Positions 6,724 to 61,207 are shown, numbered from the stretch's first letter. The stretch: DNA of 64,000 nucleotides from Planctomycetota bacterium (GCA_052034525.1 JBPOIK010000053.1:22351-86350), one strand, 5' to 3'. Made by a program: numbers and translations. Notes: generated by a model not told the origin, from the letters alone.

Positions 6724-7839
6724 ATGCGCAGAACCACGCGCGAACCGGACCCGCGCATGATGGCACGCGCACTTCTGCTCGCCAGGCGCGGTCAGGGACG
6801 AGTGGAGCCCAACCCCATGGTGGGCTGCGTGCTCGTGCGAGCCGGACGGATCGTGGGGGAAGGGTGGCACCGTCGTTTCGGCGGACCTCATGCCGAGGTC
6901 GAGGCTTTGCGCCGCGCCGGTCCTCGTGCCAACGGGTCCACAGCCTACGTCAGCCTTGAACCCTGCTGCCATCACGGAAAGACGCCACCCTGTACCGAAG
7001 CGCTGCTGGACGCCGGCGTGGCTCGCGTGGTGGTCGCGATGCTGGACCCGAACCCGCTCGTTTGCGGCGGGGGAGTGCGGAGGCTGCGCAAGGCCGGTGT
7101 GCGAGTGGACGTGGGTCTGCTGGAAGAGGAGGCCCGCTCCGTGAATCGTCCGTTCTGCATGCGCATCCAGACCGGCCTGCCCTGGGTGATTCTCAAATGG
7201 GCACAAAGCCTCGATGGCCGGATCGCCACGCGCACCGGCCAGTCGAAGTGGATATCGTGCGAAGCCTCTCGCCGACGGGTCCACCACCTGCGTGCCCGCG
7301 TGGACGCCGTCCTGATCGGTTCGGGCACCGCGCTGGCGGACGACCCATTGCTCACCGCCCGCGACGTGCCGGTTCGTCGCGTCGCCACGAGGGTTGTGCT
7401 TGATTCTCGCTTGCGCCTGCCCGTCTCCAGCAGGCTGGTCCAGACGGCCGGAGAATTCCCAACGCTTGTCTTCACGTCCCGCCGGGCCCTCACGGCCCAG
7501 GGTCGACGGGCCGAGTCCCTCAGAAGGCACCAGGTGGAGCTTGTTGCGTGCCCCACCAGCCGCACCGGCATCGCCCTGCGACCCGCCCTGCGGGCACTTG
7601 TTCGCCGCGGTATGACCAATGTGCTCGTGGAGGGCGGCAGCCAGGTGCTCGGTGCTTTCTGGGATGCCCGATTGGCGTGCGAGACTTACGTGTTTGTCGC
7701 CCCGGTTCTTCTCGGGGGCCTCCGCGCCCTTCCCGCTCTAGGCGGCACCGGCTCAGCCGCCGTGGGCGAAGTCGCGCCACATTCGCACGAATTTACGCGC
7801 ATTGGGTCAGACCTGCTTTATCATTCTATTTTACAGTAG
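6724..7839 (+). CDS. ribD: Bifunctional riboflavin biosynthesis protein RibD (deaminase/reductase).
   Basis: Contains 'MARALLLARRGQGRVEPNPMVGCVLV', HAEVEAL and the 'SLEPCCHHGKTPPC' zinc motif. The C-terminal reductase domain is present. Confidence 0.85.
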   Translation: MRRTTREPDPRMMARALLLARRGQGRVEPNPMVGCVLVRAGRIVGEGWHRRFGGPHAEVEALRRAGPRANGSTAYVSLEPCCHHGKTPPCTEALLDAGVARVVVAMLDPNPLVCGGGVRRLRKAGVRVDVGLLEEEARSVNRPFCMRIQTGLPWVILKWAQSLDGRIATRTGQSKWISCEASRRRVHHLRARVDAVLIGSGTALADDPLLTARDVPVRRVATRVVLDSRLRLPVSSRLVQTAGEFPTLVFTSRRALTAQGRRAESLRRHQVELVACPTSRTGIALRPALRALVRRGMTNVLVEGGSQVLGAFWDARLACETYVFVAPVLLGGLRALPALGGTGSAAVGEVAPHSHEFTRIGSDLLYHSILQ

Positions 7840-8007
7840 ATTGCCACGAATCATGAGGGTGATGCCAGAGCCTCATTCCTGCATCGCTTTAAGTCAAACG
7901 CCTTCCACAGCCGATTCTGAGAACAGGGCAATCGCCTGACCCGAGGCATCCGTACTGTGCAGTAGGGTGACGCGCGGGCCGTTGCGGGGAGGAAGCAGGA
8001 GGCAGGC

Positions 8008-15272: not shown

Positions 15273-17279
15273 ATGCCAGACAAGCAGACCGTGTGCGTAT
15301 GGATTGTCGCCGCGATGGCGGCGTGGACGCTGGCCGTGCGGGCCGATGTGCCGAAACCGGCCACGCACGAGGAGATTCAGGCGCTCATCCACTCGGCGGG
15401 TTCGGCCAAGGACTACGACGACGCGCCGTTCGTCTACCTGCTGGACGAGGCGGACGTGTTCGTGCGGGACTCGGGCCTGGCCACCACGGAAAGCTGCCAA
15501 GTCATCAAGATTCTGACGGACGCGGGGGTCAAAGCGTTTTCCCGACTGGTGCTGGAGTTTGACCCGGACACCTACCGCGTGGCCGTGCGATCCGTCCGGA
15601 TCCACCGGCTCGACGGCCGTGTGGAAGACGTGCCGCTGACGGACGTGATCACGCAGCCGGCCCCACAGTACATGCTCTACTGGGGCAACGAGCAGCACGT
15701 GCTGGGCCTGCCCCGCATGAACATCGGAGACGCGCTGGAACTGCGGATCAGCCGGACGGGCGTGAACATCGCCTACCTGGCCGGAGATGCCGTCGGCGCC
15801 TCCGGCGAGGCCGGCGAGCTTCAGCCGCCGATGCCCGGGCACTGGTTTGAGACCACGTTATTTCAGGGTTCGCACCCGATTGTGCGGAAGCGATACTCCG
15901 TCCACACGCCCAAGGACAAACCGATCCAGTACGAGGTGTACAACCAGCCGCTGAAATCGTCATCGTGGTTCAACACAGATTATCACGTCATCACGTTCAG
16001 CGCGGAGGACATTCCGGCTGTCAAAGCCGAGCCGCGCATGGTGGCGTTGGACGACAGCGTGGCCAAGGTGGTGATGGCCACCGTGCCGGACTGGCCCATG
16101 AAATCGCGTTGGTTCTGGGAGGTGAACCAGGGCCAGTTCGAGGCGGACGACGCCATCCGCGCCAAGATCGCGGAAGTCACGGCCGGCGCCGCCACGGAGG
16201 AGGACCGCCGGGCGGCGCTGCTGCACTGGGTGGCGGACAACATCCGATACAGCGGCACGAGCCGGGGTCCGCGAGAGGGGTTCACCCTGCACACCGGCAT
16301 CGAGACGTTCCGGGACCGCATGGGCGTGTGCAAGGACATTGCCGGCATGCTCATCACCATGTTCCGCGCCGCCGGCCTCGACGCCTATCCCACGCTGACC
16401 ATGGCCGGCCCGCGCGTGGAACGCATCCCCGCCGACCAGTTCAACCATACCGTGGCGGTGGTCAGAGAACAGGACGGCTCGTTCACGCTTTACGACCCTA
16501 CCTGGGCGCCCTGGTCGCGGCAGATGTGGTCCGTCTCCGAGCCGGTGCAGGGCGTGGTGTACGGCACGCCGGAAGGCGAGGATCTGACGTTGTCCCCGTA
16601 CTTCCCGCCGGAAGTGAATCTGGCGGCGTTCACCACTCAGAGCGTGCTCCGCGAAAACGGAACGCTCGACATGTCGATCCGCGCGGAGCTGAGCGGATAC
16701 GCCTGCACGGCGTTGCGGCGCAGCGTTTGGCGCACGCCGCCGGGCGAGCGGCAAGGGATGTTTGAGCAGGCGGTGGGCATTTCGCCGACGGCGCGGATCG
16801 AGCACGTGGAGTACACGGACCCGCTGGATTACTCCGTGGATTCCAGCGTGGAGATGAAGGTGACGGCGCCTCAGTATGCGGCCGGCTCGGGCCCGGTGCG
16901 CGCGTTCCGGGTGCCGATGCTGTCGCATCCGTTCTCGTCGTTCCTGGCGCCCGAGCTGACGTATCCGGTGGACGCAAAGACCCGCCAGTACGGCGTGCGA
17001 TTGCGGGCGACGCGGATGCTCCGGTATGACGAAACGGTGTCGCTGCCCGCGGGCTGGACGGTGCGGGAGGTGCCGGAACCACGGACGATCGACTCCGAGG
17101 CCGCCTCCCTGACGTTCGAAGCCAAGCCCGCAAACGGCGGGCTGACCATGCATCTGGAGATGAGCCTCAAGCACCACATTATTCCGGCGAAGGATTATGC
17201 GGGGTTCAAGGAGGTTCTGGACGCCATGAGAAGTCTTGGCGACGCCTGGGTGCTCTGCACGGTGGAAGCCGCTCCCTGA
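15273..17279 (+). CDS. Secreted transglutaminase-like protein (DUF3857-like N-terminal domain plus TGase core).
   Basis: Has a signal peptide. The Cys of the Cys-His-Asp core is present in 'DRMGVCKDIAGMLITMFRAAGLDAY...FNHTVA...YDPTW'. Confidence 0.7.
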   Translation: MPDKQTVCVWIVAAMAAWTLAVRADVPKPATHEEIQALIHSAGSAKDYDDAPFVYLLDEADVFVRDSGLATTESCQVIKILTDAGVKAFSRLVLEFDPDTYRVAVRSVRIHRLDGRVEDVPLTDVITQPAPQYMLYWGNEQHVLGLPRMNIGDALELRISRTGVNIAYLAGDAVGASGEAGELQPPMPGHWFETTLFQGSHPIVRKRYSVHTPKDKPIQYEVYNQPLKSSSWFNTDYHVITFSAEDIPAVKAEPRMVALDDSVAKVVMATVPDWPMKSRWFWEVNQGQFEADDAIRAKIAEVTAGAATEEDRRAALLHWVADNIRYSGTSRGPREGFTLHTGIETFRDRMGVCKDIAGMLITMFRAAGLDAYPTLTMAGPRVERIPADQFNHTVAVVREQDGSFTLYDPTWAPWSRQMWSVSEPVQGVVYGTPEGEDLTLSPYFPPEVNLAAFTTQSVLRENGTLDMSIRAELSGYACTALRRSVWRTPPGERQGMFEQAVGISPTARIEHVEYTDPLDYSVDSSVEMKVTAPQYAAGSGPVRAFRVPMLSHPFSSFLAPELTYPVDAKTRQYGVRLRATRMLRYDETVSLPAGWTVREVPEPRTIDSEAASLTFEAKPANGGLTMHLEMSLKHHIIPAKDYAGFKEVLDAMRSLGDAWVLCTVEAAP

Positions 17280-17318
17280 TCCGACAGACGTGTGTGCCTG
17301 TACCTTTGAGAGCCGATC

Positions 17319-19241
17319 ATGACCAGACATTGCCGATCCGAGCGTTTGTCGTGTTTTTTGACGATGGTATGCCTGATGGCCGCGTGGATGGTCCTGGCCA
17401 GCCCGGGCTGCCAGGCCGCCCAGGCGGCGGCGCAGCCGGTCCCGTCGCCCGCCCAGAGTCCGGAAGGCGCGGCGCCGGACGCCGTCATCCAGTTGTGGGA
17501 ACAGCGCTGGACGCTGGAGCCGGACGGCACGCTTCACCGCCGAGAGCACAAGAAGATCCAGATGGTCACCACTCGCCTGGAGAGACTGCTGGGCGATCCG
17601 CGGCTGGACCATTGTGCCGGAACGGACGAACTGATCATCCACACCGCCCGGACCATCCGTCCGGACGGCACCGTGCAGCCCGTGCCGGACTATGCCATCA
17701 ACCTGGTGGGTCCGGACGACGTGGCGGGCTGGCCGGCGTACCGTCAGTGGCGGCAGACGGTGATCTCGTCCGTTGGGATCGAGCCGGGCGCGGTGGTGGA
17801 GCTGGATTACGAAGTGATCACGCGGGCGGGCGTCGTTCCGTGGCTGGAGGCGGACCTGAATCTCCAGGACGCCCAGCCGATCACCGAACGCGTCGTCTCC
17901 GTGACGCTGCCGGAGGGGCTGCCACTGCACTACCGCCTGGACCGGGCGCAGCCGGAGACGGCCCCCGCGCGGGGCGCGACCGGCGAATACGTCTGGCGTT
18001 TCACCAATCTGCCCGCCGTTCCGGTCGAGCCGCAGTCGCCGCCGTGGAAGGAGAGTTCCGGACGGCTGCGATTCTCCATCTGCCCCAGCGCCGGCGCCTG
18101 GACGACGGCGTATCTGACGCGCGCCGAGCAGGCAGGTCCGCCGGACGAGGCGATCCGGGCGTTCGTAACCCAGGCCGCGGAGGACCAGACGACGCCCCGG
18201 GCCCGGATCGAAGCGGTCTCGAAGAAGCTGCAAGACACCTTCAATCTCGTGGATTCGCCCAAAACCATCCGTGAGCTGAACTGCCGGACCGTGTCCGAGG
18301 TTTTTGCGACCAACTACGGCAACCCGCTGGAGGCGGGTGCCCTGTTCGCCGCGGTGATGCGCGCGCTGGGCCACACGCCGACCCTGTACCTGGCGGTCCG
18401 CACACCGGACTGGGATTCGGCGCTGCCGACGGCGTCGGATCTGGCGGGGCTGGTGGTCTCCGTCGACCTGCCGGACGAAACGGTCTACATCCATCCCGGG
18501 CACGGCGTCTTCCGCAATCCCGGAACGTGGGGCCGGCACGCTTTGCTGCGCGTCGATCCGGCCGGACAGGTGCAATCACTGGCGGTGCTTCAGCGAGGCG
18601 AGGCGGACGGGAGCGAATTGCACGTCAGCGGCGCGATCGATCTGGACGGCGAAGGCATGGCCTCCGGCGAACTTCGCGTGCGTCTGACCGGCGCGTTCTT
18701 CGATCCGGATTCGCTGGATTCGGCTGACAGCCAGTCCAGGCGGCTCAAATCCCTTCTGGGCGGCGTGCTGAGCGGCTTCGAAGTCCGCAAACACTCGGTC
18801 ACAACCCTGTCCGCCGACGTTTTTCAGGCCACGGTGTCGGTAGCCTCGAAAGAGCCGCTCCAATCGCTGGACAAAAATCGGGCGATGCTGCTGGGTGGCG
18901 GCCCTGCGTCGCTGGCGGATTTTCCGATGCCGCTGGATCGGTCGGACCGTCGCAATGACGTGCGGCTGGCCGGGCGCTTCCGCGAGAGCGTGGATTTGAC
19001 CGTCAAGCTGCCCAAGAAGTGGTCGGCGACCGTGCTGCCGGCGGCGATGCCGGCCGTGGAGGGCGATTGGGGCCGGGCGGAGCAGATCGTCGAGGAGACG
19101 GACGGCTCCGTGCGATTCCGGCGAACCATCGAGGTCCGGCAGGACACCCTTTCCCCGGCGGTCTTCGCCGGCCTGCGCGACGCGATGAACACCCTGCGCA
19201 CCGACGCGGCCCGCCTGCTGGTGTGCGCACCGACGCCGTGA
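17319..19241 (+). CDS. Paralogous secreted transglutaminase-like protein, apparently without the catalytic Cys.
   Basis: Has a signal peptide. The 'NYGNPLEAGALFAAVMRALGHTP' block aligns to the TGase core of the upstream paralogue but has N/G where the Cys should be. Confidence 0.6.
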   Translation: MTRHCRSERLSCFLTMVCLMAAWMVLASPGCQAAQAAAQPVPSPAQSPEGAAPDAVIQLWEQRWTLEPDGTLHRREHKKIQMVTTRLERLLGDPRLDHCAGTDELIIHTARTIRPDGTVQPVPDYAINLVGPDDVAGWPAYRQWRQTVISSVGIEPGAVVELDYEVITRAGVVPWLEADLNLQDAQPITERVVSVTLPEGLPLHYRLDRAQPETAPARGATGEYVWRFTNLPAVPVEPQSPPWKESSGRLRFSICPSAGAWTTAYLTRAEQAGPPDEAIRAFVTQAAEDQTTPRARIEAVSKKLQDTFNLVDSPKTIRELNCRTVSEVFATNYGNPLEAGALFAAVMRALGHTPTLYLAVRTPDWDSALPTASDLAGLVVSVDLPDETVYIHPGHGVFRNPGTWGRHALLRVDPAGQVQSLAVLQRGEADGSELHVSGAIDLDGEGMASGELRVRLTGAFFDPDSLDSADSQSRRLKSLLGGVLSGFEVRKHSVTTLSADVFQATVSVASKEPLQSLDKNRAMLLGGGPASLADFPMPLDRSDRRNDVRLAGRFRESVDLTVKLPKKWSATVLPAAMPAVEGDWGRAEQIVEETDGSVRFRRTIEVRQDTLSPAVFAGLRDAMNTLRTDAARLLVCAPTP

Positions 19242-46989: not shown

Positions 46990-49632
46990 TTACCGGTCCT
47001 CGCCCTCTCCGGGCTCGATCCACGGCGGCCAGGCGGGGTCGGCGTGCAGCCGCGCCTGAAGAACCTCGGCGAATCGGTAGTGGATGAACACGAACACCCC
47101 CGTGCCTTTGCACGCCTGCAGCGCCAATCGGGCCTCGGACCGTCGCCCCAGGCCAAGCTCGCGCAGGGCGATCAGCAACGTCATCGCGCAGCGCACGCCG
47201 GGCGTCACCCGCGGCAGATCCAGCAGCGCGGTCGCGTGCATCCGACCGCTCAGGTACTCCAGGCACGGGCGGGTGAACGGATCGTCGGTTGGATCGGGTT
47301 GGGCGTCGTCCAGCCGCTGCCGCACCGCGTCCAGCGCCGCCAGCGCGGCGGCGGAGTCCCCCAGCAGCTCGGCCACCCCCGCCGCAATCAGGATGGCGGT
47401 GGTGTTCGTCTGGTGCTGTCGCAGGGTTTCGCGGCAGACCGTGCGGGCCTCATCGAGTCGGCCAACCTCCGCCAGCAGGATGGCCCGCTGCAGGGCCAGC
47501 GGGAAGAAGCTCGGCATGTCCGCACAGGCCGGCGTGATTTCCGCCAGGGCCGTCTGCAGGTCGCCCGCCTCGTGCAGGGCGATGACGCGGTGGTGGACGA
47601 ATCCGGGGTGTTCGGTGCCGGCGGCGGCACGGTCGAGTTCAATGGCGCGGGAGAGGTCTTCCGCGGCGCCCGCGTAATCGCCGACATAACGCCGCAAAAT
47701 GCCTCGACGGCCGTAAACGTCGGCCAGGCGATCGCCGCCGATCTCCAGCGCGCGGTCCAGGTCCTCGCTGCAATGAGCCAGCCATTTGGCCGGATACTCG
47801 CGCAGGTCCGGCTGCGTCGCGGCGTATGCGGCGGCGAACAGGTAGCCGGTGGCCCGCGCGGCATAGGCGCGGGCGGACTTGGGGCGGAAGATCACCCACG
47901 CGTCGAAGTCGTCCAGCATCGGCTGGAGAGCCGCTCGATCGCCCTCGATCAGCAGTCGATGGCGGCGGAAGGTGGCTCGTGCTTCGATGGCCGGCGTGAA
48001 ATCCGGCTGGATATCCAGCGCCCGGTCGTAGCAGGCGACGGGGTCCGCTCCGTCCAGATGCGTGAAAGCGTGGCCGCGGAGCAGCCAGCCCAGAGCGGTC
48101 TGAATGTGAGACTCGTCGTGCCGACGCAGAAAGCGCATGGCGTTCACGTCGTCGGTCATCTCGAAGTAGGCATAGGCCAGGCCCTGGCACGCTTCGACGT
48201 TGTTCGGGCTGCGGCGCAGGGCCTCGGTGAGCGGTTCGATGGCGCGCTGCGGCTGCGCCGTCAGCAGGGGAATCAGCCCGCGATAGAGGTACAGCTCCGC
48301 CGTACGCACGCCCAGGGCGTCGGCACGATCCAGGTGCTTCGCGGCCGCGGACGGGTTGAAGTCCAGGAGCATGGCCGCCAATCCGTCCTGAAGACTGCGC
48401 CGGCCTTCCGCCCGCCGCATCTGTGTGCGAAGCACGATCGTTGTCGTCAGCAGGGCCGCCATTACGAGGACTGCCGCAACGCGAACACGATGCCGCCGCA
48501 CGAAGCGGCCGATCCTCACGTGCAACGGCGTGCGGCGGGCCAGGATCGGTTCGCCGACCAGGAACCGTCGGCAGTCTTCCGCCACGTCGGCCGCCCGGGC
48601 GTAGCGATGGTCGGGATTCTTCCGCATGCACTTGCCGATGATGGTCTCCAGGTCGCGCGGAATGCCCGGTTGGACCTGGCCGAGCGGCTTCGGATCGGAA
48701 AACGCGATGCGGGTCAGAACGGCCTCGCGCGAGTCTCCGTCAAACGCCGGCCGCAGGGCGAGCAGTTCGTACAGGGTGGCCCCGAGCGAGTAGATGTCGG
48801 TGCGCCCGTCCAGTTGGGCGCGGCCGCCGCGGGCCTGCTCCGGCGACATGTATCGCGCGGTGCCGATGACGTCGCCGGAAAGGGTGATGGTCAATCGGGC
48901 GTCCGCCCGGGCCAGGCCGAAGTCGGTGATCCAGACATTGTCGCGTGCGTCGAGCAGGAGGTTTGACGGCTTCACGTCGCGGTGGATGATGCCCTCGCGA
49001 TGGGCGTATTCCAGGGCGTCGGCCACCTGCCGGCCCCAGCGGGCGACGCGGCGGCAATAGTCGTGCCCGGGCCGCGTCCCTTCGGCGGCCAGACGTCGCA
49101 GATGATCCGCGAGCGACCGGCCCTCGATGTACTGCATCACGTAGAACCGGACGCCCTGTTCCTCTCCGACCGCGTGCACGGGCACGATGTTGGTGTGGTG
49201 CAGCCGGCCGGCTGTCTCGGCCTCGCGAAGGAATCGTTCCGGAGCGTTCGGCGAAAGCAGGGCGCCGGGCGGAAGAACCTTCAGCGCCACGCGGCGGTGC
49301 AGCGAGGTCTGCACGGCCTCGTAGACCACGCCCATGCCGCCCCGGCCGATCTCCCGCACGATGCGGTACTCGCCGAGCATGTGGCCGGACTCAAGCTTGC
49401 CCGCGTTCAGCGAACGGCTGGTAGCCTCGACGAACTCGAGGGTTTTGAAGACGCCGCGCAGCGCGTCGGCCAGGGACGGGTGTTCGCGGATGTACCGCTC
49501 CGGGTCCGGGCTGCCGCCCCGGGCCAGCTCCTCCAGGTATTCGTCCAGCACGGTCTCCAACGAGTCGCCGGGAACCGCCGCCGAGGGCGGGTCGGTCTGG
49601 GACGCATTCGGATCGGAAGGATCAGATGGCAT
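46990..49632 (-). CDS. Ser/Thr protein kinase with a C-terminal TPR repeat region.
   Basis: 'GRGGMGVVYEA', 'VALK', 'HRDVKPSNLLL' and 'DFGLAR', then a TM segment and TPR-like repeats. Its start overlaps the ECF sigma stop. Confidence 0.9.
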   Translation of the reverse strand: MPSDPSDPNASQTDPPSAAVPGDSLETVLDEYLEELARGGSPDPERYIREHPSLADALRGVFKTLEFVEATSRSLNAGKLESGHMLGEYRIVREIGRGGMGVVYEAVQTSLHRRVALKVLPPGALLSPNAPERFLREAETAGRLHHTNIVPVHAVGEEQGVRFYVMQYIEGRSLADHLRRLAAEGTRPGHDYCRRVARWGRQVADALEYAHREGIIHRDVKPSNLLLDARDNVWITDFGLARADARLTITLSGDVIGTARYMSPEQARGGRAQLDGRTDIYSLGATLYELLALRPAFDGDSREAVLTRIAFSDPKPLGQVQPGIPRDLETIIGKCMRKNPDHRYARAADVAEDCRRFLVGEPILARRTPLHVRIGRFVRRHRVRVAAVLVMAALLTTTIVLRTQMRRAEGRRSLQDGLAAMLLDFNPSAAAKHLDRADALGVRTAELYLYRGLIPLLTAQPQRAIEPLTEALRRSPNNVEACQGLAYAYFEMTDDVNAMRFLRRHDESHIQTALGWLLRGHAFTHLDGADPVACYDRALDIQPDFTPAIEARATFRRHRLLIEGDRAALQPMLDDFDAWVIFRPKSARAYAARATGYLFAAAYAATQPDLREYPAKWLAHCSEDLDRALEIGGDRLADVYGRRGILRRYVGDYAGAAEDLSRAIELDRAAAGTEHPGFVHHRVIALHEAGDLQTALAEITPACADMPSFFPLALQRAILLAEVGRLDEARTVCRETLRQHQTNTTAILIAAGVAELLGDSAAALAALDAVRQRLDDAQPDPTDDPFTRPCLEYLSGRMHATALLDLPRVTPGVRCAMTLLIALRELGLGRRSEARLALQACKGTGVFVFIHYRFAEVLQARLHADPAWPPWIEPGEGEDR

Positions 49633-50236
49633 CGCCCAGCAGCTCCCGCAGACGGATCAGCGCCCGCACGCACAGACTGCGCACGGCACGCTCCGACCGG
49701 TCCATCTTCGCGGCTGCTTCGGCGACATTCAACTGATGGAAATACCGCAGCGAAATGGCTTCGCGCTGATCGGCACTGAGCCGATCGAGGGCCCGCTTGA
49801 GCAGACGCTCCCGTTCGGCCAGATCCACAACCTGACTGGGGCTGGCGGACGTGGCGGCCAGGGCCTCGAACAGGCGGGTCATGGACGCGTCGCCGCCCAG
49901 ATCGCCGGCACGCACTTCACGCCCGCGTTTGAGCGTCTGAAACGCCCGCCGGTCCGCGTCGCAGATGCGATGAACGGCGATCCGGCGCAACCACGCGAAG
50001 AAACTGTCATGCCCGCGGTCAACGAACTGATCGATGCTGCCCAAAGCATCCAGGTAAACCTGCTGCATGATGTCCTGCGACTCCAGCCGCTGACGGAGTT
50101 TGTCGCCCAGCTCCGCCCGGACAGACTCCAGAAGTCGCCGGCTGTGGATTTCCAGCAGTTGGCTCATGGCGGATTCATCCCGGGCCCGGGCTCGGTCGAT
50201 CAGGCAACGAAGCTCGCATGAATCGTCGGTCGCCAC
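49622..50236 (-). CDS. ECF-type RNA polymerase sigma factor.
   Basis: Sigma-2 and sigma-4 regions ('SLRYFHQLNVAEAAAKMDRSERAVRSL'). It is overlapped by the downstream kinase gene. Confidence 0.9.
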   Translation of the reverse strand: MATDDSCELRCLIDRARARDESAMSQLLEIHSRRLLESVRAELGDKLRQRLESQDIMQQVYLDALGSIDQFVDRGHDSFFAWLRRIAVHRICDADRRAFQTLKRGREVRAGDLGGDASMTRLFEALAATSASPSQVVDLAERERLLKRALDRLSADQREAISLRYFHQLNVAEAAAKMDRSERAVRSLCVRALIRLRELLGDAI

Positions 50237-50405: not shown

Positions 50406-50744
50406 CTACCGTCCGCGCGACCGGTAGCAGTCGCGGCAGTACACCGGCCGACCGCTCGTGGGCTTGAACGGCACAGTCGTCACCGCGCCGCACTCCGCGC
50501 ACGTGACCTCATACGATTCACGCTGCGGACGGCCAAAGCCGCTCCGACCGCCGCCGCCACCACCGCCACCGCCCGAGCGGCCACCGCCGCCACCGCCTTG
50601 CGTTTTGCGCTTCTCGCGGCACTGACGGCACCGCTTCGGCTCATTGGTGAAGCCGCGTTCCGCATACCGCTGCTGGTCTGCCGCCGAGTGAACAAACTCC
50701 GCGCCGCAGTCCGCGCACACAATCACCTTGTCTTCGTACGACAC
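50406..50744 (-). CDS. Double zinc-ribbon protein with a central Gly/Arg-rich (RGG-like) linker.
   Basis: CxxC-x25-CxxC ribbons flank 'GGGGGGRSGGGGGGGGGRSGFGR'. GTG start at 50744 with AAGGGAGG upstream. Confidence 0.7.
   Translation of the reverse strand: MSYEDKVIVCADCGAEFVHSAADQQRYAERGFTNEPKRCRQCREKRKTQGGGGGGRSGGGGGGGGGRSGFGRPQRESYEVTCAECGAVTTVPFKPTSGRPVYCRDCYRSRGR
50543..50598. repeat. Simple-sequence (GCC/ACC)n tract encoding the poly-Gly linker.
   Basis: ccgccgccgccaccaccgccaccgcc...gccaccgccgccaccgcc, seen directly in the sequence. Confidence 0.8.
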
Positions 50745-53993: not shown

Positions 53994-54106
53994 GAAAACC
54001 ACGGCTCTGCTTGGCAGAGCATGCGATCACGAACACCGGCGCTGCCGGATCGGCCAGACCAGACTCGCTTGTGGGCTGCAGCCCGGGCGGTCTGTGGAAC
54101 GGACGT

Positions 54107-54150
54107 GAAGCGGGGGCGGACCGTCACCGGACGATCCCGCCCCCGCTTTC
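54107..54150. terminator. GC-rich hairpin downstream of the Cys-rich gene (minus strand) and of the micro-ORF (plus strand).
   Basis: 14-bp stem GAAGCGGGGGCGGA ... CCGCCCCCGCTTTC with a 17-nt loop. Confidence 0.45.
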
Positions 54151-54182: not shown

Positions 54183-55187
54183 TTACGACGCGACCGTCGC
54201 CGCCGCCGTCACGATCGTCTTGATCTTCTGCATCGCGGTGATGATGCTCTCCGGCGAGCAGCACGTTACCGGCCGGTCTTTGCAAGCCTCTTGACAGGCT
54301 TCCGAGCACGCGCATTCGGACTTCGCCGACCCGCACTTCGCTTGACCGGCACAGCCCGGCTTGCCCTCGGCGGATGCCGTCTGGGCCTTCAGGTTCTCGG
54401 AACCGCAGCCACACTTGCCTTCACACTTGCCGGCGCACTTGCCTTCACACTTGCCATCGCACTTGCCGGCGCACTTGCCTTCACACGGTCCGGAGCAACC
54501 GGCTTTGCCTTCATGCGATGCCGTCTTGGCCCGGCCAGCGCAATCGGACGCACAACCGGCCTTGCCTTCCGCCGACGCGGTCTGGGCCTTGCCGCATGTG
54601 GACGCGCAGTTGCCGTCGGCCTTCTTGGCCGTGCACGACGCCGAGCAGCCCGCCTGGCCGGTCGCCTTGCCTTCAGCCAGCGCTACCAGCGCATCCGAAA
54701 CCACCTGAGCGGCCTTGTCCGCCTCCTCCTGTGTTTCGAACGTGTAGCCGGCCACGGAGTACTTCAACGCCGCGCCATTGGCCGCCCGGGCCGCCTCGCC
54801 GAAGCTGGCATAGCAATTCTCACCCGCCACATAACGGACGCTTGCCAGCCGGGCCGCCGTGCTCTCCAACTGCTCCACCACGCGGGCGATTGCAGCGTCC
54901 TCGGTCCCGAAGGTCTCCTCGCCGACCGCATAGACGATCGGACTGCCCGTCTCCTGTGACTTCTTCGTCGCCTGCACCCTGCAACGGGTCGTGAAATCGC
55001 CGACGTGGTACGTCAGTCGGGGCAGTTCCTTGACCAGCTTGGTCAAAGCAGCCGGACAGCCGCTGCCATCACAGCCTTGCTTCGTCCCACACGCCGCTTT
55101 CGATCCGCAGTTCGGTCCGGCCTGTACCGCCGACGCCGCAACCGTAAACACCAGCGCCAGCCCAAAAACAAACAAACCCTTTCTCAT
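54183..55187 (-). CDS. Secreted cysteine-rich repeat protein, metallothionein-like.
   Basis: Signal peptide 'VFGLALVFTVAASAVQA'. About 40 Cys, including 'GKCAGKCDGKCEGKCAGKCEGKCGCG' and three spaced 'TASAEGKAGC' repeats. Confidence 0.7.
   Translation of the reverse strand: MRKGLFVFGLALVFTVAASAVQAGPNCGSKAACGTKQGCDGSGCPAALTKLVKELPRLTYHVGDFTTRCRVQATKKSQETGSPIVYAVGEETFGTEDAAIARVVEQLESTAARLASVRYVAGENCYASFGEAARAANGAALKYSVAGYTFETQEEADKAAQVVSDALVALAEGKATGQAGCSASCTAKKADGNCASTCGKAQTASAEGKAGCASDCAGRAKTASHEGKAGCSGPCEGKCAGKCDGKCEGKCAGKCEGKCGCGSENLKAQTASAEGKPGCAGQAKCGSAKSECACSEACQEACKDRPVTCCSPESIITAMQKIKTIVTAAATVAS
54403..54490. repeat. In-frame tandem repeat of about 12 nt (CACTTGCCnnnn)n inside the Cys-rich gene.
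   Basis: cacttgccttcacacttgccggcgcacttgccttcacacttgccatcgcacttgccggcgcacttgcc, which encodes the (GKCx)n repeat. Confidence 0.7.
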
Positions 55188-55487
55188 GCTGAATACTCCT
55201 TCCTCTTGAAACGGTCAGTTCTGCCCGATACGGCCCTGTCCCCCGCGGGACACCTTCCTCCGCCGCAAACGACGCGGAGAAAGGAAACAACATTCGGACG
55301 CGTCAGTCGGTTCCATCTTATTCGCTTGAACGACCCGAATCCGATTTTCCTGCGTAATTTGTTTTTGTTCGGAAACGCATATGTCACCCTCTTGAGACAT
55401 CCACAGACGGGCAGTGGACGGGACGTATGCCGCACGCCCGTCGTGTATCAAACACGATGCGCGCCTGAACGGATTGGAAGGTGTGGA

Positions 55488-56696
55488 CTACTCGTTCGAG
55501 CCGTGAGGGCTCGAATCCTCCTCCAGGCCCAGCGGATCAAATCCCTGGATCGTAAACGGAGAGGATCGCCAGATTTCGCCGTCGAAATACGGTTCGGTAA
55601 TCGCCTCGCGAAGAGCCGATTCGTCCGTTCGCGCCGGATCGTAGGTGATCCGCACCGGCACGTACCCCGGCCCCGGCCAGGCCTCCACGGAGATGTACCC
55701 GGGAACCTCGTACTCATCATCGCGCTCGACGAAGTACATGAACAGCGATGCCCGGCCACGACACGTCAGGTCGTTCACCCTCAATTCCAGGGTTGCGGTT
55801 TGGGCCGGTTCCTCGCCGCGACCGGCCGCGATCGCCCGGTACGACGGCAGTGGAAAGGCGTACGCGGCGCCGACCGCCGCGGCCAGCGACAGTAGCAGGA
55901 TGCCGATAAGAGCCGCCTGCGGCCACGACCGACCGAGAAACCGGGGAGGCCCCCATGTCAGGGCCCCTTCCTTCTCCCGCGGACAGACCTCGAGGCAGTT
56001 CAGACACGACAGGCACCGGGCGGCCGTCACCTGCTGGACCTTGTCCACTTTGATGCCCGTCGGACACACCTTGGCGCACAACCCGCAATCGATGCAGGCG
56101 TCCGGGTGCCGCCGCACGCGCGTCAGCCCGAGCCGGGAAAGCGGGTGCATTACCGCGGCCATGGGACAGAACCAGCGGCAGAACGGCATCACGATGAACA
56201 GCGATGCAAGCACGATCGCGCCGGCGACGATGTATGCCCAGTATGTGATGTCTTCACCGTGCCGACTGATCAGCGCGTAGCAGGGATCCGCCCGGCGGAA
56301 CTCCAGCTCCGCCGCCGACCACGTGAAATAGAGGATGATTCCCAGCACAACGTATTTCAACACGGCCAGTCCGCGATCCAGCGTATACGGCACGCGAACC
56401 GGACGGATGCCGATTCGCTTCATCCCGGCCTGCAACCATTCCGACATCGCGCCGATGGGGCAGGCGTACCCGCAGAACGCCCGTCGCAACAGGAACGCCG
56501 TCAGCAGCACCGCGCCCAGCACGTAGAGGTTCGACACCCCCAGCGAGCAGAGCATATTCCCTTCACTGATGTAGTTGTAGATCGCCTCCACGCCGCCGAA
56601 CGGGCAGTATGCCTCCGCGTTGCCCTTGACCACAAAGACACCGATCAAGGTCAACGCCACGAAGGCAAACTGCACCAAGCGCCTGGTCCGTTTCAT
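55488..56696 (-). CDS. Polyferredoxin-type membrane protein (NapH/MauN/CcoG-like) with a C-terminal soluble domain.
   Basis: Two membrane-embedded CxxxCP motifs (AYCPFGG and YACPIGA). Two 4Fe-4S ferredoxin motifs (CIDCGLCAKVCP and CLSCLNCLEVCP). The C-terminal ~100 aa carry 'DLTCRGRA'. Confidence 0.8.
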   Translation of the reverse strand: MKRTRRLVQFAFVALTLIGVFVVKGNAEAYCPFGGVEAIYNYISEGNMLCSLGVSNLYVLGAVLLTAFLLRRAFCGYACPIGAMSEWLQAGMKRIGIRPVRVPYTLDRGLAVLKYVVLGIILYFTWSAAELEFRRADPCYALISRHGEDITYWAYIVAGAIVLASLFIVMPFCRWFCPMAAVMHPLSRLGLTRVRRHPDACIDCGLCAKVCPTGIKVDKVQQVTAARCLSCLNCLEVCPREKEGALTWGPPRFLGRSWPQAALIGILLLSLAAAVGAAYAFPLPSYRAIAAGRGEEPAQTATLELRVNDLTCRGRASLFMYFVERDDEYEVPGYISVEAWPGPGYVPVRITYDPARTDESALREAITEPYFDGEIWRSSPFTIQGFDPLGLEEDSSPHGSNE

Positions 56697-56754
56697 GAGA
56701 CTGAGCCCCCCCGAGGAAAACGCGCCTGACTATCCGGCATCGACAGTGTTGGAC

Positions 56755-56787
56755 GGGCGATCGCGCCCTTGGCGGGCGCGATCGCTC
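56755..56787. terminator. Hairpin downstream of the TPR/Cys-tail gene.
   Basis: GGGCGATCGCGCCC-ttggc-GGGCGCGATCGCTC, with 13 of 14 bp paired. Confidence 0.45.
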
Positions 56788-56816
56788 CGTCCGATCCTGT
56801 TCCGCTCCGGCCGGGA

Positions 56817-57695
56817 CTATTTCTTCTCGTTGTCGCCGCACGGCGTCGCGGTCCCGCTGCTGCACTTGGCGCGGCTCGGGCAGCTCCCGCAGCTCGTGCC
56901 GCCGCTGCATCCGGATTCCTTGACCTTCGATTCGGTCTTGAGAGCCGCGGCGAACCCCGGGTGCGTCGTCAGCGAAGCGAGATCCTTGTCGGCGGACGCC
57001 CGTGCCTTGACGGCCTCCAGCCGACTGGGAGGGATGTTCTCAAACGCCTGAACCAGCCACTTCAGGGCGGCTTCGGCATCCCCCGCCTGCGCATAAGCAC
57101 AAGCCATGTTGTAACACACGCCGGGGGAGGGGTTTTCCGGCGCCTGGATGTCCGACAGCAGCGCCCCGGCTTCTTCGGTCCGCCCCTGGCGAGCCATCGC
57201 AATGGCCTTCAGAAGCCGCAACTCAAACGTCGTCTGGTCCGCGGCGATCTGTGCGATGGTGGCTTCCGCTTCGGTGTTCTGGCCCAGCTCCAACTGGGTC
57301 TGCGCCAGATGGGCGGCCGCGTCGGCAGACTTCTCCCGCTCGAAGGTTTTCTGGTCCAGCGCGAGCGCTTCACCGTATATCTCGTGCTCAAGGTAAAACG
57401 CCCGAAGGGCCGCACTGGCGGCAGCCAGCCGCTCCGGGTTCGTCTCCTTCGCGACCGTCTCGCGCATCTTGATCACACGGCGGAGTACCGCATACGCCTC
57501 GCGGCACTCGGTGTTGCTCGTGTCCGCCTTGGCGGCGTTGCCGTACACCGCCAGAGCCCCATCGAAGTCCGCCTTGGCCAGCAACGCCTCGGCCTGGGCT
57601 TTGTAATCGGCGACCGGTTGGGCGTTGTCCGCCCAGGCCCATCCAACCACGCAGAACACGATCCCCAGAGAACAGACAACTCGACGGGTGCTCAT
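56817..57695 (-). CDS. Secreted TPR-repeat protein with a Cys-rich C-terminal tail.
   Basis: ATG at 57695 with AAGGAG 7 nt upstream. Has a signal peptide and TPR-like helices. The tail is 'SGCSGGTSCGSCPSRAKCSSGTATPCG'. Confidence 0.7.
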   Translation of the reverse strand: MSTRRVVCSLGIVFCVVGWAWADNAQPVADYKAQAEALLAKADFDGALAVYGNAAKADTSNTECREAYAVLRRVIKMRETVAKETNPERLAAASAALRAFYLEHEIYGEALALDQKTFEREKSADAAAHLAQTQLELGQNTEAEATIAQIAADQTTFELRLLKAIAMARQGRTEEAGALLSDIQAPENPSPGVCYNMACAYAQAGDAEAALKWLVQAFENIPPSRLEAVKARASADKDLASLTTHPGFAAALKTESKVKESGCSGGTSCGSCPSRAKCSSGTATPCGDNEKK

Positions 57696-58134
57696 TTTGC
57701 TCTCCTTGGCAAACCACGAAACCGCAGAAGCCGCGATCCGATCGCCCCGAGCCAGCGCCAACGGGGCCCCATGACTCCCCAAAAAAGGCGATCGGACGCT
57801 CATCTGTTTGAACGGCCACCAGCCGTCCTGTCCTGCGGACAGTCTGTGAATCCATGATACCGCCAAACCCGTCCGCAGGTCAGTAGTGCGGGGCCGGTCG
57901 GGAGCACAAGCAATACGCCCCTGGGTCGCTTTACGTTTTGACTGTATTTGCTCGTCTATTGGTGTAAATGGCCCGATGGCTCAACCCCCGGCCGCCGGCA
58001 GAGTGCCGGTGGCCGGGGTCAATTTCGCGCCTCGCAGAGCGGCGAGACGGTTTGCTGCCGGGCCACGGCGCACCCCCGCGCAAAACGGGCGAGCCGCGCC
58101 GCAGCGGCGGCCGGCGATTGATCGCGGCGCTTTG

Positions 58135-59266: not shown

Positions 59267-60592
59267 TCACGGAGCATCTGTTCTCTTCAAACACTCACAT
59301 TTGACAGGCCCCGGTCCTTCAATAATGACTGGCAGCCCGATTGTGCGACAACTGAAGGGTAGGTTCTTGCAGTGTCCCTCGCATCCCCAAGATGAATAGA
59401 TCAGACGCGGCTGTTGCCCAGTTGCCGCGCAAACGAGGTTGTCGGGGCACGCGCCTACGCAGGTCCAGGCGTAAGCGATTCTGTCATCACCCGGGCATAC
59501 GGAAACCCTCAGGCAGCAAGCCGAGGAGATCACGAGAGGGATTGCCGTGAGGGTGCATGCCGGTTGGGTTGTGGGTGGTTTCGGCGCGGGAGGCGGATCC
59601 GCGAATGCCACGAGGCCGTTCGGGTCATAACCCGTTGCGTATTCCGGGATCGTTCCCGCCAGCCGGCTGATCTCGGCCCTGGCGATGGCGCGGGCGTTCG
59701 TGCGAAGCCGGAGAATCTTGAACCCGCGGACCCATGGGCGGGCGACAGTGAAGTCGGCCAACGTGTCCTCGCGAACGGCGGGTGGTACGCTGTGAATGAG
59801 CGTAATGGCATCGGGCGTCGGTTTGTGGAATACGCCCATGTGGTCGCTGTCGTACCAGGGTTTCAGGCCCGGTGCGCTGCGTTCGCGGACCACGAGCCAG
59901 ATGTCACCGTCCTGCACCTTCGCGACGGCGTCTTCAAGTACCTCCACGGGAACATAGGTCTCAGAACGGACGACCCGGTCCGGAAGCGATTCGATCTTCG
60001 TGGCCTTCGCGGCCGCCTTCGCCTGCCCGAGCGGCGTCTCATCCTCACCGAAATCCAGCGTCGCATAGAAGCGTTTCGGGTAGACGACGTGGTCGAACGA
60101 CGTGACGGGCACGCCCAGTTCGGCGGTCACGTCGGAGAGAAGCCAGGCGTTATTGGGCGCCCAGTCGTGGAGCATGAAGAAGTTCCGCTCGAGGAACGTC
60201 GGAACGCCTTCCCGGTGGCGCAAGCGGAGCGTGAGTTTGTAGTGAGCATCCCAGTCCGCTGCGCAGGCCAGAGCAACACACCGCTCCGTAAACGTGACGC
60301 AGTTGCTGGCACTGAGTTGAAAGATGCCTGCCGCTCCATGGAACGGCTGCCCCAGCCCCTGATGCGCGAAGAACGCCACCTCATTGCCGGGGGCTGTCTT
60401 CGTTTGACGTCGTCGATGAAGATCAAGAAACGTCGCGAGTTCGGGGTGAGTCCAGGCACAAATGGGACGCGCGAGTAACACTTGGTAGCTCGCTTCTTCA
60501 GCCGCAGTCAGTCCCCCCCCCCCCCGCGCGGCACCTGCCACTGCGCATAGACCCATCAGCGACAGGGCGACTTGTCTGGCCGTGATGTTCAT
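59267..60592 (-). CDS. Secreted hypothetical protein with a G13 tract in the signal-peptide codons and a Cys-rich C-terminal domain.
   Basis: ATG at 60592. The signal peptide 'ALSLMGLCAVAGAARGGGGLTAAEE' is encoded across the G13 tract. The C-terminal 100 aa carry 14 Cys. Confidence 0.6.
   Translation of the reverse strand: MNITARQVALSLMGLCAVAGAARGGGGLTAAEEASYQVLLARPICAWTHPELATFLDLHRRRQTKTAPGNEVAFFAHQGLGQPFHGAAGIFQLSASNCVTFTERCVALACAADWDAHYKLTLRLRHREGVPTFLERNFFMLHDWAPNNAWLLSDVTAELGVPVTSFDHVVYPKRFYATLDFGEDETPLGQAKAAAKATKIESLPDRVVRSETYVPVEVLEDAVAKVQDGDIWLVVRERSAPGLKPWYDSDHMGVFHKPTPDAITLIHSVPPAVREDTLADFTVARPWVRGFKILRLRTNARAIARAEISRLAGTIPEYATGYDPNGLVAFADPPPAPKPPTTQPACTLTAIPLVISSACCLRVSVCPGDDRIAYAWTCVGACPDNLVCAATGQQPRLIYSSWGCEGHCKNLPFSCRTIGLPVIIEGPGPVKCECLKRTDAP
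60513..60525. repeat. Homopolymeric tract: C13 on the plus strand, G13 in the coding strand.
   Basis: gtcccccccccccccgcgcg, counted directly in the sequence. Confidence 0.9.
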
Positions 60593-61207
60593 GCTGTCAC
60601 ACCTTTTGCAAAGCTGCCTTGAGAACCGGGCCCGGATAAGGCAATTGGCATTTATTAGCACTTTTGGGGGCTCGCGTCAAGCAAAATAAGCCGCAATGCG
60701 ATACGCCCAGTTCTACTTGGGCGGGTTGAAGATGCAGGGCAAGCGTTGAGCGTAACACTTTGTGTAGCATAGCGTTGCGCGTCATTTTGCTGCCTGCCGC
60801 GTTGTTGACTGGCGGGGGATGTCGTCGGGCGTCCGGGCACCGCTCGGAGGTGCTCAAGAGAACGGGCGCGGCGGGAGAATGGAAGGCATCCCACGGGTTT
60901 AGCCGGGGGCGGCGGGAACCCAAGCGCACGAGCGGGACGCGGGCAAAAGCTGCAAACAGGAGGGCTCCACGGTGCTTCGCGCCAAAGCCGAGTGGGAAAT
61001 ACTTGCTCGACGTGGATTGGTGGTTTAAGATCGGCCCGGCGCGGAGTCAATCACGATCAAGTGTCGCCGCGCGCCGGCCGGACGCCGCCCCCGTGGCCGG
61101 CGGTTGCGGAAGGGTGAGGGGGCGGAAGCCGTCTGGTTTTCTCAGGCAGAACGTGCCGCCTCCGGCGTTCGGCGGATCAAAGCGGCATCGTTCCGGGACA
61201 CAGGCTC

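Follow-up and report, generated by a model that had tools for sequence, protein, structure and literature searches.

We analysed a stretch of DNA of 64 kb (64,000 nucleotides, hereafter the window) from a Planctomycetota bacterium (GCA_052034525.1), in which three adjacent genes had been predicted, from the sequence alone, to form a single periplasmic metal reduction or sequestration system: one for a secreted tetratricopeptide repeat (TPR) protein with a cysteine tail, one for a membrane polyferredoxin and one for a secreted Cys-rich protein. The three genes are indeed found together on the minus strand at 54183-57695, with exactly the boundaries given in this original prediction (Table 1). 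However, only the adjacency of the TPR and polyferredoxin genes is conserved, indicating that the functional unit is a two-gene TPR-polyferredoxin module specific to Planctomycetota, while a module of three genes is unsupported. Literature searches returned no description of the TPR-polyferredoxin pairing, and for this pair the earlier statement that the arrangement is not a described operon type seems to hold.

To follow the pair across the phylum, we examined 80 polyferredoxin loci from a scan of species-representative genomes, belonging to Phycisphaerae, Pirellulales, Thermoguttaceae and unclassified Planctomycetota. Their neighbours were analysed by tblastn with the window proteins, and all open reading frames (ORFs) within 5 kb were clustered in an unbiased manner. 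In 66 or more of the 80 loci, the gene immediately upstream of the polyferredoxin gene, in the same orientation, is the TPR gene, with a median gap of 86 bp (120 bp in the window). The TPR gene is the sole conserved neighbour, the downstream side being without any conserved gene. Thus, of the co-conservation expected for the three genes, the part concerning the TPR-polyferredoxin pair stood and the part concerning the Cys-rich gene did not. Moreover, no nap, nos, cco or mau gene was found beside the polyferredoxin in any of the 80 loci or in the window, the whole 64 kb of which contain no nap, nos, cco, cop, mer or mau gene. No cognate oxidoreductase of the nap, nos or cco type thus adjoins the polyferredoxin at any locus, which leaves the prediction unchallenged on this point.

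The polyferredoxin has more than 861 homologues with ~60% identity over the full length. Its assignment to the NapH/NosR/CcoG type is supported, and the motifs that had been noted were confirmed: Pfam recognises Fer4_5 twice and a Fer4 dicluster, and the protein carries two CX3CP motifs (C75/C79-P80 and C173/C177-P178) and two CxxCxxCxxxCP motifs (C201-C211 and C228-C238). Within this type, the whole protein is nearest to NapH/MauN (TIGR02163, 70.0 bits vs a cut-off of 213.05; NapH equivalog, 70.3 vs 234) and to NosR (NF046105, 54.7 bits vs 1000, covering NosR positions 488-661 only), all of these scores being well below the respective cut-offs. The CcoG model (TIGR02745) reaches 23.6 bits vs 316.7, with an E-value of 0.5 for the membrane core. 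When the membrane core is taken alone, the order is the same, with NosR and NapH/MauN nearest and CcoG far behind. The protein contains 16 cysteines, each of which is kept in 83-84 of 84 orthologous genomic and metagenomic copies. Four of them, C31, C50, C139 and C312, belong to neither the Fe-S nor the CX3CP motifs.

The AlphaFold2 (AF2) model of the polyferredoxin (pLDDT 84.5) comprises four transmembrane (TM) helices, a ferredoxin domain, a further helix at residues 260-280 and a terminal beta-alpha-beta-beta-alpha-beta domain. Arg and Lys are abundant at its N-terminus and in the loops that follow TM2 and TM4. On the basis of the positive-inside rule and of the published topology of NapH, in which the CX3CP and Fe-S motifs face the cytoplasm (PMC5449189), we infer that the CX3CP motifs and the ferredoxin domain of the polyferredoxin are cytoplasmic, and that C31, C50 and C139 are periplasmic. 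The fifth TM helix would therefore place the C-terminal domain with C312 on the same periplasmic side as these three loop cysteines. The periplasmic location that had been proposed is supported for this domain, for the Cys tail of the TPR protein and for the Cys-rich protein. We also considered a dual Sec/Tat polyferredoxin (PMC5449189) but rejected it, as TM5 is not preceded by a twin-arginine motif and no cofactor is required by the exported domain.

The C-terminal domain of the polyferredoxin had been said to recall heavy-metal-associated (HMA) folds, and this was borne out, in a degenerate form. The domain is predicted to fold as beta-alpha-beta-beta-alpha-beta with C312 in the beta1-alpha1 loop, the position of the first metal-binding Cys of HMA domains. 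A profile of the domain, searched against PDB sequences, found the HMA domains of CopA and ATP7B at E-values of 0.01-0.04, and aligned C312 with the first Cys of GMTCxxC. The Pfam HMA model (PF00403) was reached by 1 of 29 orthologues (E 8.5e-4), while the domain of the window protein itself gave no Pfam HMA hit. An hhalign comparison with five HMA sequences, which were entered by hand, gave 77% (E 2e-5). Since these three sequence-level tests agree, the evidence supports the domain being a remote and degenerate homologue of HMA domains, closest to the metal-binding domains of Cu-ATPases and to Cu chaperones. The degeneracy concerns the metal-binding loop: the second Cys of GMxCxxC is absent (L-T-C312-R-G-R), the +3 position being R, K, N or S. 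In one subgroup of orthologues, the Cys is followed by R-H instead of R-G.

The TPR protein starts at MSTRR and has 292 aa, the same start being used in public JGI gene calls on identical contigs. Its N-terminus is a signal peptide (MSTRRVVCSLGIVFCVVGWAWA/DN), and signal peptides were found in all 66 TPR orthologues. Tandem TPR hairpins are supported by TPR_19 (E 3.9e-9) and by TPR_END_plus (41 bits vs a cut-off of 32). The Cys tail quoted in the original prediction was recovered verbatim. Its four cysteines are spaced C-x5-C-x2-CP-x4-C, and 63 of the 66 orthologues terminate in ES-x-CS-x-G-x-x-C-x-x-CP-x-R-x-x-C; a fifth tail Cys of the window protein, C286, is not conserved.

ArsE is an Fe-S protein, and relatives of ArsF and ArsG were found beside the module in part of the loci. 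Six loci from at least two clades (L024, L035, L046, L050, L060 and L069) share the order ArsF (one to three copies), ArsG/CcdA-like, TPR, polyferredoxin, with the ArsF and ArsG genes ~1-3 kb upstream of the polyferredoxin gene. The ArsF-family products are membrane-anchored and thioredoxin-like, with the CxxC-containing motif FHxxxRCxTC, and score 102-214 bits vs a cut-off of 60 (NF040494). The CcdA-like product has two CP motifs and matches ArsG (NF040495) at 274-307 bits vs 200, as well as Pfam DsbD_2 above its cut-off. As the sole functional hint from the gene neighbourhood, this context points to extracytoplasmic thiol or redox chemistry. The family names, which come from organoarsenical work, may hide a general periplasmic redox role; as far as the account in PMC9144182 goes, the organoarsenical role is known only from Shewanella, in work cited there.

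We consider the chances about even that the pair is an uncharacterised conduit carrying electrons outward to a periplasmic thiol or metal site, with the TPR tail as its client. The polyferredoxin would take electrons at its cytoplasmic clusters or on the quinol side, as NapH, NosR and CcoG do, and would pass them outward, possibly via cofactors ligated by the CX3CP cysteines. The receiving periplasmic site would be made up of C31, C50 and C139 in the loops and C312 in the HMA-like domain, and it would have as its client the TPR partner, through the four cysteines of the tail. The chemistry would be of a thiol or thiolate-metal redox type, in which either a Cys-ligated metal such as Cu is kept reduced and handed on, or disulfides are reduced. 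Copper is favoured by the precedents of CcoG and A. fulgidus CopZ (PMC7558416), and disulfide reduction by the ArsF/ArsG context.

Several observations weigh against this conduit. The HMA-like domain has one Cys and not a CxxC pair, and since in addition the window protein falls below the Pfam HMA model, metal binding by this domain is uncertain. The topology is itself inferred. No copper, mercury or other metal-resistance gene lies near the polyferredoxin in any locus, and the ArsF/ArsG linkage occurs in 6 of the 80 loci only and is absent from the window, where tblastn found no homologue of either gene. Furthermore, about ten orthologous polyferredoxins have no TPR gene and instead follow genes for an ABC ATPase and an ABC-2::CPBP fusion, so the TPR protein is not obligatory. 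Finally, because a scan found no terminator between the polyferredoxin and Cys-rich genes, the latter may be co-transcribed by read-through in the source organism.

Two more specific explanations have to be set against this general one. The pair could be a copper system, in which the polyferredoxin would be a CcoG-like cupric reductase while the HMA-like domain and the TPR tail receive or deliver Cu(I) for cuproenzymes of the periplasm or membrane. Precedents for Fe-S domains that reduce Cu(II) for HMA-type acceptors are A. fulgidus CopZ, in which such a domain is joined to an HMA domain, and the cupric reductase CcoG, an Fe-S protein whose C-terminal domain is periplasmic (PMC7558416). The likeness of the C-terminal domain to Cu-ATPase domains and Cu chaperones agrees with this, and the C-R-H subgroup adds a possible His ligand. 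Nevertheless, the score of the CcoG model (23.6 bits vs 316.7) and the closer relation of the membrane core to NosR and NapH, the single Cys in place of CxxC and the lack of cop, cco, sco or pcuC genes nearby make us regard a copper system as unlikely. It should also be noted that the module occurs in metagenome-assembled genomes (MAGs) from anoxic digesters and sulfidic springs, where a demand from haem-copper oxidases is doubtful.

Alternatively, the polyferredoxin may be an Fe-S-driven periplasmic disulfide reductase parallel to CcdA/DsbD, in which a disulfide of its periplasmic Cys set, once reduced, would in turn reduce the TPR tail or TPR-bound clients; CcmH/CcmI offer an analogy from cytochrome c maturation. 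The binding of client peptides is a common function of TPR domains, the four invariant cysteines predicted to face the periplasm could act on the four-Cys tail, and the operons of the six loci join thioredoxin-like ArsF and ArsG/CcdA-like genes to the pair. However, a thioredoxin fold is found in neither protein, we are not aware of any NapH-type protein that reduces disulfides, most loci lack the linked ArsF/ArsG genes, and this role is already covered by CcdA-like proteins. We therefore think this explanation improbable as well. Beyond the electron conduit, to which we give preference, it is conceivable, albeit rather unlikely, that the pair represents a hitherto unrecognised, phylum-wide export of reducing power, through an Fe-S conduit, to a composite tetra-thiolate site of three loop cysteines and the lone HMA Cys serving the TPR tail, as an alternative to CcdA/DsbD or haem systems, and that the Cys-rich neighbour belongs to a new fold family of planctomycete envelope proteins.

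The loci without a TPR gene that follow the ABC-2::CPBP fusion, an ABC-2 permease joined to a CPBP/Rce1-like intramembrane protease, comprise six from genomes (L037, L064, L072, L082, L085 and L087) and L101, L104, L115 and L119. A metagenome scan centred on ABC-2::CPBP found the polyferredoxin as the next gene in 4 of 80 loci, in addition to the six genome loci. The polyferredoxins of this subgroup have mostly C-R-H, not C-R-G, after the HMA-like Cys. At another locus (L015), a polyferredoxin orthologue with 66% identity and no secreted TPR partner is preceded by a gene (7258-7860) whose product combines TPR repeats with a YggX-type Fe(2+)-trafficking domain. This gene lies immediately upstream of the polyferredoxin gene. 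We rejected this product as an equivalent of the TPR partner, as it is a single case, cytoplasmic and from a different TPR family. Two polyferredoxin paralogues lie 120 kb apart on a Phycisphaerae contig (CAXXKI010000013.1; L013 and L017); one has the TPR partner, and the other lacks it and is preceded by two tandem genes whose products have PEP-CTERM-like tails.

The remaining explanation is the one from which the analysis started, namely that all three genes make up one periplasmic metal reduction or sequestration system, with the polyferredoxin as the reductase of a metal, the Cys-rich protein as its sequestering agent and the TPR protein as a scaffold. Cysteines are exposed outside the cytoplasm in all three products, the polyferredoxin carries its HMA-like domain, purifying selection acts on the Cys-rich linker, whose Cys positions are conserved, and the lack of a detectable terminator after the polyferredoxin gene would fit a common transcript. 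Adjacency on the same strand is limited to the immediate clade of the window: besides the window itself, the Cys-rich gene follows the polyferredoxin gene only in L008 (67% identity; 1 of the 80 genome loci) and in a metagenome contig (L005). In the other 79 of 80 genome loci, a hidden Markov model (HMM) of the Cys-rich domain detected no member of the family up to 8 kb on either side of the polyferredoxin. These include L009, which has a polyferredoxin with 86% identity and 8 kb of sequence downstream. Conversely, the Cys-rich orthologue in L004 (64% identity) adjoins unrelated genes without a polyferredoxin nearby, and more distant members (L006, L007, L088, L089-92 and L094) also have unrelated neighbours. 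Even in the window, the Cys-rich gene is set apart from the polyferredoxin gene by a gap of 300 bp and has its own ribosome-binding site. A system of three genes is thus very unlikely, and the Cys-rich gene is a lineage-specific neighbour from a separate, independently conserved secreted family.

One arrangement could have linked this family to the polyferredoxin indirectly. A distant member (P0130; L093, 2979-3692) lies directly after an ABC-2::CPBP gene orthologous to those found before the polyferredoxin at other loci, which would count in favour of the three-gene system. We rejected such a link: none of 80 further ABC-2::CPBP loci carries a member of the family, and the arrangement is therefore probably a coincidence.

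The Cys-rich protein itself differs in part from its first description. It was thought to have about 40 cysteines; the actual number is 29 in 334 aa (8.7%), 23 of which fall in residues 176-312. The signal peptide and the repeats that had been noted are present, the latter as a 12-nt (GKCx) array of 6.4 copies and units of the KAQTASAEGK type. No match was found in Pfam or NCBIfam, a profile of the domain gave nothing significant against PDB sequences, and a word-indexed protein search with the domain profile yielded 4 proteins only. While close homologues number only 7, a search with the profile of residues 45-172 against 1.84 billion representatives returned 560 clusters, defined at 50% identity, at E <= 1e-3, and 462 at E <= 1e-10. 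The members that were read have 180-480 aa and ~5% Cys, with signal peptides that are often lipobox-like, four to six Y-x-V-G...C...A units, a Cys-rich low-complexity stretch before or after the domain and a conserved terminal helix. According to the structural model, the window protein would combine a confidently predicted domain without a solved relative and a disordered linker, in an uncharacterised family.

Throughout the Cys-rich gene, the linker included, each region has a rate ratio of non-synonymous to synonymous substitutions (dN/dS) of 0.1-0.3, which indicates that the gene is real and constrained and confirms the purifying selection presumed for it. The GKC array is absent from the orthologues in L004, L005 and L008, where KADGGCASTCG stands in its place and the remaining Cys positions are retained, which indicates that the repeat has recently expanded in frame in the lineage of the window. 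The label metallothionein-like describes the composition only; the protein is predicted to consist of a folded domain and a disordered linker. Moreover, the composition is less exotic for the phylum than had been assumed, because Cys-rich secreted YTV cell-wall proteins are already known in Planctomycetales, where they are abundant in cell-wall preparations (PMC8567305). Membership of the YTV family (PF07639) was rejected, as neither the window protein nor any of 75 family members scanned gave a Pfam match. A SPOR domain (PF05036), suggested by weak Pfam hits and by an AmiA-like amidase nearby, was rejected too: 8 of the 75 members are hit weakly, the window protein is not, and structural support is lacking. 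Most likely, the protein acts in the envelope or periplasm, by thiol cross-linking or by metal buffering through its disordered Cys linker.

Table 1. Features of the TPR-polyferredoxin module, the Cys-rich gene and their flanks (positions in the window).
Feature	Position	Strand	Description
Candidate promoters	57854-57968	minus	two sigma-70-like matches, 160-270 bp upstream of TPR start; consensus matches only
TPR gene	56817-57695	minus	292 aa, secreted; Pfam TPR_19, NCBIfam TPR_END_plus
Four-Cys tail motif of TPR protein	56862-56909	minus	C263, C269, C272, C278: ES-G-CSGGTSCGSCPSRAKC
Polyferredoxin gene	55488-56696	minus	402 aa, five-TM, NapH/NosR-type core
Membrane core, residues 1-190	56127-56696	minus	TM1-TM4 (AF2), CX3CP motifs, loop cysteines C31/C50/C139
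2x[4Fe-4S] ferredoxin domain	55962-56114	minus	C201/204/207/211 and C228/231/234/238; Pfam Fer4_7, Fer4_9, Fer4_10; cysteines invariant
Fifth TM helix, residues 259-280	55857-55922	minus	AF2 helix 260-280; hydrophobic stretch AALIGILLLSLAAAVGAAYAF
Degenerate HMA-like domain, residues 285-392	55521-55844	minus	single invariant Cys312 in L-x-C-R-G
Cys-rich gene	54183-55187	minus	334 aa, 29 Cys; outside the conserved module
Conserved domain, residues 45-172	54672-55055	minus	four beta-beta-alpha units, motif Y-x-V-G-x5-C/F-x3-A
Disordered Cys/Gly/Lys/Ala-rich linker, residues 176-312	54252-54662	minus	23 Cys; pLDDT <50; includes (GKCx) array
12-nt tandem (GKCx) array	54410-54486		6.4 copies (TRF)
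Conserved C-terminal helix, residues 313-333	54189-54251	minus	pLDDT ~92; family-wide
G+C-rich terminator-like hairpins	54004-54146	minus	downstream of Cys-rich gene; one by scan, one by eye (GCGGGGGCGG...CCGCCCCCGC)

The window comes from a Phycisphaerae-type planctomycete: identical or near-identical contigs originate from activated-sludge metagenomes, and close relatives are labelled Phycisphaerae or Phycisphaeraceae. We take the Phycisphaerae to be one of the early-branching lineages of the phylum. The remainder of the 64 kb is of a housekeeping type, with genes for aspartokinase, cysteinyl-tRNA synthetase, glycoside hydrolases and ABC transporters, and an ATP synthase lies nearby in a contig matching the window (L001). 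A tRNA scan and an Rfam search (in E-value mode for 50-62 kb and in gathering mode for the whole window) found neither a tRNA nor an Rfam family. Upstream of the Cys-rich gene, the long leader of 300 bp contains a match to the Pseudomonas sRNA P4 at 55211-55294 (minus strand, E 0.002). With 26 bits vs 37, this sub-threshold match was judged to be probably due to chance.

Other genes of the window deserve mention in their own right. Two genes upstream of the TPR gene, an AmiA-like N-acetylmuramoyl-L-alanine amidase (59267-60661, minus strand) has a C-terminal extension of ~95 aa with ~14 Cys (…CCLRVSVCPGDD…CVGACPDNLVC…CEGHCKNLPFSC…CEC…), and its N-terminus varies between the otherwise identical contigs L001, L002 and L003. 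A small protein encoded at 50406-50744 (minus strand) contains the treble-clef zinc fingers zf_Tbcl and zf_Tbcl_2, joined by a long poly-Gly/Arg/Ser linker (GGGGGGRSGGGGGGGGGRSG). At 46990-50236 (minus strand), a gene for a planctomycete-type extracytoplasmic function (ECF) sigma factor overlaps the start of a gene for a Ser/Thr kinase of 880 aa with TPR repeats, the two being probably a signalling pair. Two tandem paralogous DUF3857 genes (668 and 640 aa) are found at 15273-19241 (plus strand), the first of which also matches a transglutaminase-like core.

Few electron acceptors are known for the widespread NapH/NosR/CcoG-type polyferredoxins, and the pair described here is a sharply defined variant, with 16 invariant cysteines, a one-Cys HMA domain and a co-inherited TPR partner with a four-Cys tail. 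Given that the module occurs throughout Planctomycetota, cultivable genera among them, the role of the periplasmic end is accessible to genetics and biochemistry. The answer would also be relevant to copper or thiol homeostasis in this phylum, whose cell envelope is unusual. The family of the Cys-rich domain, with its ~560 clusters at 50% identity and no solved relative, is a reasonable target for structural work and for envelope proteomics.

Among the known systems, the polyferredoxin shares with NapH, MauN and NosR (TIGR02163, NF007013, NF046105; Fer4_5) a four-TM core with CX3CP after TM2 and TM4 and, C-terminal to this core, a cytoplasmic domain that contains two CxxCxxCxxxCP motifs. However, it scores far below the cut-offs of these families (70 vs 213; 55 vs 1000), it has in addition a fifth TM helix, an HMA-like domain and the invariant loop cysteines C31, C50 and C139, and it has a dedicated TPR partner and no NapG/NapA, nos or mau neighbour. 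Unlike NosR, it starts with TM1, without an N-terminal FMN-binding domain. The cupric reductase CcoG/FixG/RdxA (TIGR02745) and its short homologue YccM are polytopic membrane proteins that carry two [4Fe-4S] clusters, one more TM helix and, at the C-terminus, a small domain outside the cytoplasm (PMC7558416), an overall plan that the polyferredoxin is predicted to follow. In contrast to CcoG, its C-terminal domain is HMA-like and not Ig-like (FixG_C), its genomic context is not ccoGHIS, and the relation in sequence is weak (23.6 bits vs 316.7).

This C-terminal domain has the fold of HMA domains (PF00403), such as those of CopZ, Atox1, MerP and P1B-ATPases, with Cys312 at the position of the first metal-binding Cys, and the presence of Fe-S and HMA parts in one polypeptide recalls A. 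fulgidus CopZ. It differs in having one Cys in L-x-C-R-G/H, in its predicted periplasmic and membrane-tethered position, and in an extra conserved C-terminal extension, WR-x-SPF-x-I-x-GYDPL. ArsEFG clusters resemble the six related loci in which ArsF and ArsG, above their cut-offs, directly precede the TPR-polyferredoxin pair, whereas the window has neither gene and the polyferredoxin matches no Ars model.

As for the Cys-rich protein, it is like YTV proteins in being a secreted Cys-rich planctomycete protein (PMC8567305), but is built from a domain of four beta-beta-alpha units, a disordered Cys linker and a terminal helix, and has no YTV match. YTV proteins are moreover reported to be absent from the early-branching lineages of the phylum (PMC8567305). 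With metallothioneins it shares a linker with 17% Cys over 137 residues, in CxxxC and GKC repeats. Unlike them, it is exported, has 334 residues and a folded domain with few Cys, and its linker is predicted to be disordered, with a repeat number that varies between orthologues; there is no homology. Overall, sequence comparison suggests that what is new is the recruitment of a one-Cys HMA domain and of a dedicated TPR partner to the known NapH/NosR/CcoG type, rather than a categorically new mechanism, for which no evidence was seen.

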